A stretch of 64,000 nt of DNA, from NCBI RefSeq assembly GCF_016903815.1, contig NZ_CP069973.1. The stretch is one strand, 5' to 3'. Below are positions 12,773-15,898 of the stretch, one piece after another. How positions within the stretch are numbered: position 1 is the first letter of the stretch; each line of letters opens with the position of its first letter. The translations under genes were made by a program, and so were the position numbers. This DNA comes from Escherichia coli. Its GTDB lineage: Bacteria; Pseudomonadota; Gammaproteobacteria; Enterobacterales; Enterobacteriaceae. The notes below the pieces were generated by a model. It saw only the letters and a program-made list of their open reading frames with translations, was not told the DNA's origin and made no database searches.

Positions 12773-13901
12773 ACTGAACGATCTTCTGACCACCCGTGAG
12801 CTACAACGCTGGCGATTAATTCTTGGCGAAGCGGCAGAAACGACGCTTTGTGGGCTGGATGACAACGCCCGGCAGATAGACCACGCGCTGGAGTGGCTGT
12901 ATGGGCGCGATCCTGAACGGCTCCAGCGTGGTGAACGCTCCGGTGGATTAGGTTGCTCAAATCTCACCACCCCTGAGTGGATCAACAGTATTCACACGCT
13001 GTTTCCGCAACAGGTGATTGAACGGCTGGAAAGCGATGCCGTACTGCGCTACGGCATTGAAGATGTGGTGACGAATCTCGACGTGCTGGAACGTATGCAG
13101 CCTTCTGAAAGCCTGCTACGCGCCGTTTTGCACACCAAACATCTGATGAATCCCGAAGTACTGGCTGCCGCCCGCCGGATAGTACGCCAGGTTGTTGAAG
13201 AAATTATGGCGCGACTGGCAAAGGAAGTTCGTCAGGCTTTTTCTGGTGTCCGCGATCGCCGTCGCCGCTCATTTATTCCACTGGCGCGAAACTTTGATTT
13301 CAAAAGTACGCTGCGCGCCAACCTGCAACACTGGCACCCGCAACACGGCAAGTTGTATATCGAATCCCCCCGCTTTAACAGCCGCATTAAACGCCAAAGC
13401 GAACAATGGCAACTGGTCTTACTGGTTGATCAAAGCGGATCAATGGTGGACTCGGTGATCCACTCAGCGGTGATGGCGGCCTGTTTATGGCAGTTACCCG
13501 GTATTCGTACCCATCTGGTGGCGTTTGACACCAGCGTGGTTGATCTCACGGCAGATGTTGCCGATCCGGTAGAGTTATTAATGAAAGTGCAATTAGGCGG
13601 CGGAACCAATATCGCCAGTGCCATGGAATATGGTCGGCAACTTATTGAACAACCAGTGAAAAGCGTCATTATCCTCGTGAGCGATTTTTACGAAGGGGGT
13701 TCATCATCATTACTGACGCATCAGGTGAAAAAGTGTGTCCAGAGCGGCATCAAAGTGCTGGGACTGGCGGCGCTCGATAGCACCGCAACACCTTGCTATG
13801 ACCACGATACGGCCCAGGCGCTGGTTAATGTCGGCGCACAAATAGCCGCCATGACACCGGGCGAGCTGGCATCATGGCTTGCGGAGAATCTTCAGTCATG
13901 A
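12765..13901 (+). CDS. yehP: von Willebrand factor A (VWA) domain protein with MIDAS motif, 378 aa
   Basis: ATG preceded by GGGGAG; MIDAS-type LVLLVDQSGSM plus downstream GGGTN and LVSDF; start overlaps the upstream stop (atgtctga). Confidence 0.85.
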   Translation: MSELNDLLTTRELQRWRLILGEAAETTLCGLDDNARQIDHALEWLYGRDPERLQRGERSGGLGCSNLTTPEWINSIHTLFPQQVIERLESDAVLRYGIEDVVTNLDVLERMQPSESLLRAVLHTKHLMNPEVLAAARRIVRQVVEEIMARLAKEVRQAFSGVRDRRRRSFIPLARNFDFKSTLRANLQHWHPQHGKLYIESPRFNSRIKRQSEQWQLVLLVDQSGSMVDSVIHSAVMAACLWQLPGIRTHLVAFDTSVVDLTADVADPVELLMKVQLGGGTNIASAMEYGRQLIEQPVKSVIILVSDFYEGGSSSLLTHQVKKCVQSGIKVLGLAALDSTATPCYDHDTAQALVNVGAQIAAMTPGELASWLAENLQS

Positions 13902-15898
13902 ATTCACTACGTCCGGAATTATTAGAACTGACACCACAAGCTTTGACGGCGTTAAGCAATGCCGGTTTTGTTAAGCGCAGCCTTAAAGAACTGGAAAATG
14001 GCAACGTCCCGGAAATCAGCCATGAGAACGGCGCTTTAATCGCCACCTTCAGTGACGGTGTCCGCACCCAGCTGGCGAACGGTCAGGCACTGAAAGAGGC
14101 TCAGTGCAGCTGCGGGGCCAGCGGCATGTGCCGCCATCGCGTGATGCTGGTTTTAAGTTATCAGCGACTTTGCGCCACCACCCAGCCTACGGAAAAAGAA
14201 GAAGAGTGGGATCCGGCAATCTGGCTGGAAGAACTGGCTACCCTGCCCGATGCCACCCGCAAACGCGCGCAGGCACTGGTCGCTAAAGGTATCACCATTG
14301 AGTTGTTCTGTACGCCGGGCGAAATTCCCTCTGCCCGCTTACCGATGAGCGATGTACGTTTTTATTCCCGCAGCAGCATTCGTTTCGCACGCTGTGATTG
14401 TATTGAAGGAACACTTTGCGAACATGTCGTACTGGCAGTACAGGCCTTTGTCCAGGCCAAAGCGCAGCAAGCGGAATTTACTCATTTAATCTGGCAGATG
14501 CGCAGCGAACACGTCACATCATCTGACGATCCGTTTGCCAACGATGAGGGCGACGCGTGTCGTCAATATGTTCAGCAATTAAGCCAGGCGTTATGGCTTG
14601 GCGGCATCAGCCAGCCGCTTATTCATTACGAGGCTGCTTTCAGCCGCGCGCAGCAAGCGGCGGAACGCTGCAACTGGCGATGGGTGAGTGAATCGCTACG
14701 GCAACTGCGCGCCAGCGTTGATGCCTTCCACGCCCGCGCCAGCCACTATCATGCCGGAGAATGCTTACGTCAGCTTGCGGCATTAAACAGTCGATTAAAT
14801 TGCGCACAAGAGATGGCGCGGCGCGACAGTGTTGGTGAAGTTCCTCCGATGCCGTGGCGCACGGTCGTTGGCGCTGGCATTGCCGGAGAAGCAAAGCTTG
14901 ATCATCTGCGGCTGGTGTCTTTAGGTATGCGTTGCTGGCAGGATATTGAGCAGTATGGTTTACGCATCTGGTTCACCGATCCCGACACCGGCAGTATTTT
15001 GCACCTTTCGCGCAGTTGGCCGCGAAGTGAACAGGAAAACTCACCGGCAGCGACGCGTCGGCTATTTAGTTTTCAGGCTGGCGCACTGGCAGGTGGGCAA
15101 ATTGTTTCACAAGCAGCAAAACGCAGTGCCGATGGCGAGCTGTTGTTAGCTACCCGCAACCGCTTGAGTAGTGTTGTGCCGCTGTCGCCAGACGCCTGGC
15201 AAATGTTGAGCGCGCCATTGCGCCAGCCGGGCATTGTGGCTTTGCGGGAATATTTACGCCAGCGTCCCCCCGCCTGCATACGGCCTCTTAATCAGGTGGA
15301 TAACTTATTTATTCTGCCAGTCGCTGAGTGTATTTCACTCGGTTGGGATAGCAGCCGCCAGACGCTGGATGCGGAGGTAATCAGCGGCGAAGGTGAAGAT
15401 AACGTGCTGACATTATCCCTACCAGCCTCTGCCTGTTCGCCCTTTGCTGTTGAACGCATGGCAGCTCTGTTACAACAAACAGAGGACCCCGTGAGTATGG
15501 TTTCTGGCTTTGTCAGTTTTGTAGAGGGGCAATTGACACTGGAACCACAGGTAATGATGACAAAGACTCGTGCCTGGGCTCTGGACGCAGAAACTACGCC
15601 TGTGGCACCGCTACCTTCTGCCAGCGTTTTGCCTGTGCCGTCTACCGCTCATCAGTTGCTGATGCGCTGCCAGGCGTTACTTATTCAACTGCTCCATAAC
15701 GGCTGGCGCTATCAGGAACAGAGTGCTATTGGTCAGGCAGAGTTGCTGGCGAATGACCTCACCGCGGTGGGTTTTTATCGGCTGGCACATGTGTTGGCAC
15801 AATTTCGTAATACAGAAAGCGAGGCACGGGTAGAAGCAATGAATAACGGTGTTTTGCTTTGCGAACAATTATTCCCCATGCTTCAGCAACAAGGATGA
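13898..15898 (+). CDS. yehQ: Protein with two SWIM-type zinc-finger motifs (CxC...CxH)
   Basis: ATGA overlap with the yehP stop; motifs CSCGASGMCRHRVMLVL and CDCIEGTLCEHVVLAV. Confidence 0.8.
   Translation: MNSLRPELLELTPQALTALSNAGFVKRSLKELENGNVPEISHENGALIATFSDGVRTQLANGQALKEAQCSCGASGMCRHRVMLVLSYQRLCATTQPTEKEEEWDPAIWLEELATLPDATRKRAQALVAKGITIELFCTPGEIPSARLPMSDVRFYSRSSIRFARCDCIEGTLCEHVVLAVQAFVQAKAQQAEFTHLIWQMRSEHVTSSDDPFANDEGDACRQYVQQLSQALWLGGISQPLIHYEAAFSRAQQAAERCNWRWVSESLRQLRASVDAFHARASHYHAGECLRQLAALNSRLNCAQEMARRDSVGEVPPMPWRTVVGAGIAGEAKLDHLRLVSLGMRCWQDIEQYGLRIWFTDPDTGSILHLSRSWPRSEQENSPAATRRLFSFQAGALAGGQIVSQAAKRSADGELLLATRNRLSSVVPLSPDAWQMLSAPLRQPGIVALREYLRQRPPACIRPLNQVDNLFILPVAECISLGWDSSRQTLDAEVISGEGEDNVLTLSLPASACSPFAVERMAALLQQTEDPVSMVSGFVSFVEGQLTLEPQVMMTKTRAWALDAETTPVAPLPSASVLPVPSTAHQLLMRCQALLIQLLHNGWRYQEQSAIGQAELLANDLTAVGFYRLAHVLAQFRNTESEARVEAMNNGVLLCEQLFPMLQQQG

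Follow-up and report, generated by a model that had tools for sequence, protein, structure and literature searches.

The stretch of DNA analysed here, 64,000 nucleotides of Escherichia coli (NCBI RefSeq assembly GCF_016903815.1, contig NZ_CP069973.1; hereafter the window), is a piece of the chromosome carrying metG, the DUF4132/yeh cluster, btsSR and osmF. The gene at positions 13898-15898 on the plus strand is yehQ, whose full-length product has 666 amino acids (aa). Our best explanation as a whole, to which we give a probability of about 0.5, is that YehQ acts as the nucleic-acid recogniser of a YehM/YehP/YehQ complex driven by the MoxR-type ATPase YehL. We infer the nucleic-acid-directed role of YehQ from structural matches of its predicted OB folds, from its WGR-containing partners, from a candidate SOS box upstream of the operon and from a variant locus with a ligase-WGR gene; the drive by the YehL ring is proposed by analogy with known MoxR-VWA pairs and from natural gene fusions.

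According to this explanation, YehQ would be the last subunit of the system, consisting of N-terminal helices, two SWIM modules, a four-helix bundle, two OB folds and a C-terminal bundle. YehM, YehP and YehQ would form one complex, and, in the manner of other MoxR-VWA pairs, the VWA protein would couple it to the YehL ATPase ring. The recognition surface would lie on YehQ: its OB folds, possibly together with the SWIM fingers, would bind DNA that is single-stranded or damaged, or some other nucleic acid. As partner or client, the WGR-DUF4132 proteins would be remodelled or recruited, and DNA damage would switch the E. coli operon on through LexA.

Domain architecture and alleles of YehQ

An earlier note on this DNA, made from the letters alone, had described a protein of ~666 aa with two CxC-x(n)-CxH motifs in its N-terminal third and had assigned them to SWIM zinc fingers. 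Both motifs were found in that part of YehQ, within the first 27% of the protein, and both have the form CxC-x5-CxH: CSCGASGMCRH at aa 70-80, with the ligands C70, C72, C78 and H80, and CDCIEGTLCEH at aa 166-176, with the ligands C166, C168, C174 and H176. Among 200,000 shuffles of YehQ, at least one CxC-x(2-12)-CxH motif occurred in 0.24% and at least two in 0.003%. The features of the gene, including those taken from an AlphaFold2 (AF2) model, are as follows.

13898..15898, plus strand: yehQ coding sequence, full-length allele, 666 aa plus stop
14012..14176, plus strand: SWIM module 1, aa 39-93, ligands at 14105-14137 (Pfam SWIM E=7e-8)
14294..14467, plus strand: SWIM module 2, aa 133-190, ligands at 14393-14425, homologous to module 1
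14543..14830, plus strand: predicted 4-helix bundle, aa 216-311 (AF2 model)
14888..15181, plus strand: predicted OB-fold 1, about aa 331-428
15305..15580, plus strand: predicted OB-fold 2, about aa 470-561 (AF2 and fold matches; W483 and Q488 conserved)
15644..15892, plus strand: predicted C-terminal helical bundle, aa 583-665 (AF2; last 52 aa absent in K-12)

When the whole of YehQ was scanned with the Pfam SWIM family (PF04434; gathering cutoff 19.6 bits), a single stretch was reported, aa 56-88, with 32.3 bits (E=7e-8), which bears out the SWIM assignment for module 1. Scanned alone, module 1 scored 25.6 bits, above the cutoff, and module 2 scored 18.0 bits (E=0.002), just under it; SWIM was the sole Pfam family matching module 2. 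The second finger is thus below the cutoff in Pfam, and its assignment stands on homology to module 1: a hidden Markov model of module 1 detected module 2 in 64 of 65 full-length family members (best E 6e-10), and hhalign aligned the two modules with 90.5% probability (E 1.4e-6) and with the Cys/His ligands in register. In the alignment of these 65 members, which share 25-63% identity, the module 1 ligands are invariant (65/65), and those of module 2 are kept in 57-58 members (about 88%). Among 1.84 billion representative proteins, searched exhaustively, 868 YehQ relatives were found, 273 of them below E 1e-30.

The secondary structure in the AF2 model follows an identical pattern in both modules, strands and then a helix, with strands in aa 39-59 and a helix at aa 79-93 in module 1 and strands in aa 133-166 and a helix at aa 175-190 in module 2. 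In each, C-x-C ends the last strand and C-x-H lies at the N-terminus of the helix. Judged by sequence comparison, module 2 is a diverged duplicate of module 1 whose ligands have been lost in about 12% of family members, and each module probably holds one zinc ion. The SWIM zinc finger domain was reportedly described by Makarova, Aravind and Koonin in 2002. The CxC-xn-CxH signature and the strands-then-helix arrangement of PF04434 are shared by YehQ; it is distinctive in carrying the motif twice in tandem and in the shortness of the spacer, 5 residues. The observation of a double SWIM is correct and already catalogued: RefSeq annotates the gene as yehQ, "SWIM zinc finger family protein", and it is not new because the record of K-12 YehQ (b2122) already gives the product name "SWIM zinc finger domains-containing protein YehQ". 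The combination of SWIM with OB folds is an architecture that was not found described in the literature searched.

Beyond the fingers, no Pfam family covers aa 201-666, and neither YehQ nor the family profile had a significant match among PDB sequences. The AF2 model, built from the 65-sequence alignment, reached a predicted local distance difference test score (pLDDT) of 93.4 and a predicted template-modelling score of 0.91, and begins with a short N-terminal helical segment ahead of SWIM module 1. Its beta-rich region, aa 331-561, is predicted to form five-stranded OB barrels in tandem, with a helix between strands 3 and 4. Foldseek matched the OB folds to RPA70AB bound to single-stranded DNA (ssDNA), LEF-3, HIN, POT1, CST, SSB, Teb1 and Stn1. 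The likeness of aa ~331-561 to the tandem OB binders RPA70 DBD-A/B, SSB and HIN-200 is at the level of the fold, with 7-11% identity and no sequence similarity; like binders of the RPA70/SSB/HIN type, the OB region of YehQ has conserved basic and aromatic residues, among them W374, R409, W434 and W483. Unlike in RPA70-type binders, the OB folds of YehQ sit between helical bundles and after the SWIM fingers.

The allele in the window is shared at 100% identity by E. coli strain 7/2 and nine further clinical isolates, and its product aligns end to end with homologues of 645-695 aa. A mechanical call places yehQ in an open reading frame spanning 13874-15898; instead of 13874, the ATG at 13898 is taken as the start, on which RefSeq and the homologue alignments agree, and this ATG overlaps the yehP stop codon as ATGA. 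K-12 YehQ is the orthologue at the same locus with the same two SWIM motifs. It ends after residue 614 at an amber codon (GAG to TAG at codon 615, positions 16943-16945 of the K-12 locus), whereas the 666-aa protein of the window resembles homologues in other genera in length; the 52 codons 3' of the K-12 amber are still readable in frame.

Over the 614 shared residues the two proteins have 95% amino-acid identity, and yehQ is 90-95% identical in most E. coli genomes. The ratio of nonsynonymous to synonymous substitution rates (dN/dS) against K-12 is 0.09, indicating purifying selection; diversifying selection on yehQ was rejected on this ratio, the divergence being synonymous. The dS of yehQ against K-12 is 0.23, that of neighbouring genes about half (0.05-0.13), and such a high dS with a dN/dS of 0.09 suggests old allelic lineages or recombination at yehQ. 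Separately, the yehQ coding sequence contains, at 15467-15482, a perfect match to the palindromic LexA-box core CTGT-N8-ACAG; this pattern has two matches in the 64 kb, which is within chance expectation (20% of shuffles).

The yeh cassette across taxa and its regulation

The neighbourhoods of nine YehQ homologues (26-63% identity; five from metagenomes) were read together with that of K-12; the named hosts include Klebsiella grimontii, an Erwinia-like genome labelled Pseudomonas graminis, Iodobacter and Mycobacteroides chelonae. In all ten of these loci, and in the window, the YehQ gene directly follows a VWA_CoxE gene and is the last gene of the cassette, in agreement with its earlier description as the terminal gene of the cluster. 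Wherever the locus sequence extends far enough, genes for an AAA_5 protein (MoxR/YehL) and a DUF5682 protein lie upstream of VWA_CoxE, so that the order of the cassette is AAA_5 (MoxR/YehL)-DUF5682-VWA_CoxE-YehQ, with start/stop overlaps between genes. One or two DUF4132 proteins, with or without WGR, are encoded upstream of, divergently from or downstream of the cassette in eight of the nine loci. Locus L012 has no DUF4132, just a HEAT/DNA_alkylation-like protein nearby, and the number of DUF4132 paralogues per cassette ranges from 0 to 3 across taxa. The cassette is spread from Proteobacteria to Actinobacteria and moves as a unit, as its flanking genes vary from taxon to taxon; in both E. 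coli and Klebsiella, the yeh locus occupies the same conserved site between housekeeping genes.

Two kinds of natural fusion were found. A metagenomic locus (L013) encodes a DUF5682-VWA_CoxE protein of 1,107 aa (region 6678-10001), and a VWA_CoxE-YehQ protein of 778 aa (P0177) has 34% identity to YehQ. Together they argue for a physical association of the three proteins. Some E. coli "fusions" among the matches (P0006, P0069) may be gene-calling or frameshift artefacts. Locus L013 also carries, directly upstream of its AAA_5 gene, a gene (1-1401) for an NAD-dependent DNA-ligase(OB)-BRCT-WGR protein; its DUF4132 protein has ankyrin repeats in place of WGR, and the WGR sits at the C-terminus of the ligase/BRCT protein.

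Several searches with cassette proteins returned nothing further. No match to the six cassette proteins was found in PADLOC-DB 2.0 at E<=0.01 and no meaningful one in NCBIfam, and the 209-aa DUF4132 protein that stands alone in locus L008, used as a query for homologues, retrieved only itself.

The candidate SOS box of the E. coli operon lies between metG and the first gene of the cluster.

1441..1456, plus strand: LexA (SOS)-box-like palindrome CTGGATAAAATTACAG, read from the sequence; identical in K-12

The palindrome aaCTGGATAAAATTACAGgg is the sole CTG-N10-CAG palindrome in that interval, 10 nt upstream of the start codon of the first gene; as CTGG-N8-ACAG it has one mismatch to the CTGT-N8-ACAG core. 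Among LexA-regulated genes with a known SOS box, molR is listed in Table 1 of a published compilation (PMC6590174), and the palindrome at 1441-1456 is presumably this published molR box. The molR promoter is also activated by BglJ-RcsB (PMC3950696), and H-NS binds near yehL-yehM (PMC3686432). The DdrO radiation/desiccation regulon of Deinococcus has a WGR protein and a DUF4132 protein among its strongly induced members (PMC8533742).

The operon in the window and its deletion

Between the SOS-box-like palindrome and yehQ, the window carries the following features.

1466..5263, plus strand: WGR + DUF4132 paralogue, 1,265 aa (Pfam; absent from K-12)
5276..9070, plus strand: WGR + DUF4132 protein, 1,264 aa (Pfam WGR 1e-17, DUF4132 1.7e-51)
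9080..11278, plus strand: yehI-like third DUF4132 paralogue, pseudogene, aa 1-725 (RefSeq pseudogene)
11248..11258, no strand: deletion junction with short microhomology (blastn against K-12; junction alignment)
11249..12772, plus strand: yehM (DUF5682) remnant, pseudogene, aa 253-759 only (RefSeq pseudogene)
12765..13901, plus strand: yehP, CoxE-type VWA protein, 378 aa (Pfam VWA_CoxE E=1.9e-71; annotated yehP)

The WGR domains that the earlier note had placed in the operon are present in the two upstream proteins of 1,264-1,265 aa. The gene for the 1,265-aa protein lies between metG and the molR counterpart and shows about 70% DNA identity to K-12 yehH, in patches only. The gene at 5276..9070 is the intact counterpart of the K-12 molR (yehF/yehH) pseudogene, being collinear with yehF-yehH at 93%. 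The yehI remnant matched aa 1-725 of K-12 YehI in tblastn (93.7%), has lost the DUF4132 domain and gave no Pfam match, and the yehM remnant, located with K-12 YehM in tblastn, covers only positions 276-695 of the Pfam DUF5682 profile. The translation of YehP shows a DxSxS metal-ion-dependent adhesion site (MIDAS) motif (VDQSGSM).

Relative to K-12, a 3,992-bp deletion removed yehK and yehL, which encodes the MoxR AAA+ ATPase, together with the C-terminal 485 residues of YehI including the DUF4132 domain and, from YehM, the N-terminal third (residues 1-252). It fuses yehI codon 725 to yehM codon 253 in frame, and a TGG to TGA stop follows at 11276-11278, eight codons past the junction. No YehL or YehK match was found anywhere in the 64-kb window. 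Of the cassette, the AAA_5 MoxR ATPase gene and a full-length DUF5682 gene are both missing in the window; the DUF4132 partners are present, two as intact WGR + DUF4132 genes and one truncated. With yehL, yehK and parts of yehI and yehM lost, the machine is therefore disabled here. K-12 shows the reverse pattern, having kept yehK, yehL and full yehI and yehM with a fragmented molR, and which parts of the yeh locus have been disabled differs among E. coli lineages.

Of 5,426 complete E. coli genomes, 5,208 carry yehL and 94, which are near-identical, carry the deletion junction. Because it is confined to these 94 genomes, the deletion is recent and gene decay would not be visible yet, and the intact yehP and yehQ of the window are most likely recent orphans. 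It is rather probable that yehQ in this strain is a decaying remnant without function, whatever its ancestral role, given the loss of the ATPase gene and of half of two partner genes, the extra stop codon in the fusion reading frame and the RefSeq listing of both flanking fragments as pseudogenes. Against this stand the intact, full-length yehP and yehQ, the two remaining WGR-DUF4132 genes and the recency of the deletion.

Two further observations concern the window at large. In ST131 sublineage L1a, the blaCTX-M-15 transposon TnMB1860 is known to have inserted into the chromosome in the metG/DUF4132/yeh region (PMC9334617); in the window, this region (positions 1-17000) has no TnMB1860 insertion. 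The only Rfam match of the window is a Peptidase-S11 RNA motif at 29614-29694 on the minus strand (72.8 bits), which probably lies in the pbpG leader.

Alternative explanations and significance

Several points weigh against a YehL-driven complex with YehQ as its nucleic-acid recogniser. SWIM domains also serve protein-protein contacts and can be protein-binding modules, and OB folds bind proteins and sugars as well. The Foldseek likeness is modest (E 1e-3; target-normalised TM scores of 0.39-0.44). No convincing LexA-type box was found upstream of the cassette in loci L003 and L006, the ligase-WGR neighbour is a single case (L013), and a model of the DUF4132 domain (pLDDT 90.2) matched no informative or recognisable catalytic fold. 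No functional study of yehQ, other cassette genes, DUF4132 or DUF5682 was found in the literature searched. Inactivating lesions are, moreover, frequent in E. coli (the K-12 molR fragments and yehQ amber, the deletion in the window), which suggests that the system is dispensable.

The core of the cassette can be compared with known systems. YehL is one of just two MoxR ATPases in K-12. It represents one of seven MoxR subfamilies and has no assigned function (PMC3893208). MoxR-VWA pairs function as remodelling chaperones powered by ATP (PMC7159879, PMC3893208), and the cassette, like RavA-ViaA, CoxD-CoxE, NorQ-NorD and CbbQ-CbbO, has at its core an AAA_5 protein and a CoxE-type VWA protein with a MIDAS. 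Compared with those pairs, it adds three conserved partners (DUF5682, the SWIM-OB protein, and DUF4132 with or without WGR), is probably under SOS regulation and has no conserved client enzyme nearby, and in the window its ATPase is absent.

The two alternatives for the ancestral role start from this core. The first, which we regard as unlikely, is that the cassette encodes a chaperone for the maturation of a cofactor or complex, with YehL-YehP acting like CoxD-CoxE, NorQ-NorD or RavA-ViaA and the SWIM and OB parts of YehQ binding protein clients, as both folds can. YehP falls clearly within VWA_CoxE (E 1.9e-71), YehL belongs to the YehL subfamily of the MoxR family (PMC3893208; Pfam AAA_5), and every characterised MoxR-VWA pair named in PMC7159879 matures a complex or inserts a metal. 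No client enzyme is conserved next to the cassette, however, the flanking genes differing in every taxon, and the WGR domains, the candidate SOS box, the ligase-WGR neighbour and the best OB matches, which are to ssDNA binders, point to DNA.

The same evidence bears on the claim of the earlier note that the function is directed at nucleic acid rather than at molybdate metabolism. The candidate SOS box and the ligase-BRCT-WGR neighbour favour its first half, and the "molybdate regulator" label proved to be historical rather than sequence-based. Its second half did not stand in full, because characterised MoxR AAA+/CoxE-type VWA relatives mature metallo-enzymes, including the Mo-Cu CO dehydrogenase (PMC7159879), which leaves some room for a cofactor- or complex-maturation role. 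If the cassette had such a role, the old "molybdate" phenotype could be a remote trace of it.

The second alternative, a conflict or anti-mobile-element system, would make the cassette a fifth kind of MoxR-vWA defence, in which the expanded WGR-DUF4132 paralogues and YehQ sense DNA that is invading or damaged and the ATPase-VWA switch releases an effector. The precedent is the MoxR-vWA ternary conflict systems of the VMAP, iSTAND, FtsH and beta-propeller types (Kaur et al. 2020, PMC7159879), which share with the yeh cassette a MoxR-vWA core with obligatory partners and a CoxE-related vWA. The variable DUF4132 paralogue number, the unrelated chromosomal sites of the cassette in different taxa, the frequent lesions within E. 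coli, H-NS binding at yehL-yehM (PMC3686432) and the presumed SOS induction, a trait typical of prophage-linked functions, would fit such a system. Unlike the systems of Kaur et al., the cassette proteins contain, by Pfam, no VMAP, inactive STAND, FtsH or vWA-fused beta-propeller, so none of the third components defining the four published ternary systems is present, and the cassette vWA protein has no variable effector domain. WGR, DUF4132, SWIM and YehL are not mentioned in PMC7159879. The bpMoxR profile matched K-12 YehL weakly (18.4 bits against a 27-bit cutoff). With PADLOC models matching 0/6 cassette proteins, no toxin-like or nuclease fold found in DUF4132, a conserved housekeeping site in E. 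coli and Klebsiella, and purifying rather than diversifying selection on yehQ, we consider a defence role improbable.

Beyond the YehL-driven complex with YehQ as recogniser, we tentatively raise the possibility that the YehL-M-P-Q plus WGR-DUF4132 cassette encodes a DNA-damage-induced machine of a kind not recognised before, serving DNA repair or foreign-DNA sensing. It would join a MoxR/VWA motor to sensors of DNA lesions or ssDNA, these sensors being the double-SWIM/tandem-OB protein and the PARP-type WGR proteins.

Since its locus is a broken copy, the window is ill suited to studying the system; this calls for a strain or species with an intact cassette, as K-12 too has defects, in molR and yehQ. 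The whole cassette is of more interest than the copy in this window. YehQ and its operon belong to those conserved genes of E. coli that still have no assigned function, and the zinc fingers with tandem OB folds, the VWA/DUF5682 fusions and the ligase-WGR variant make a testable proposal of them: an SOS-linked, ATP-driven complex that would recognise DNA.

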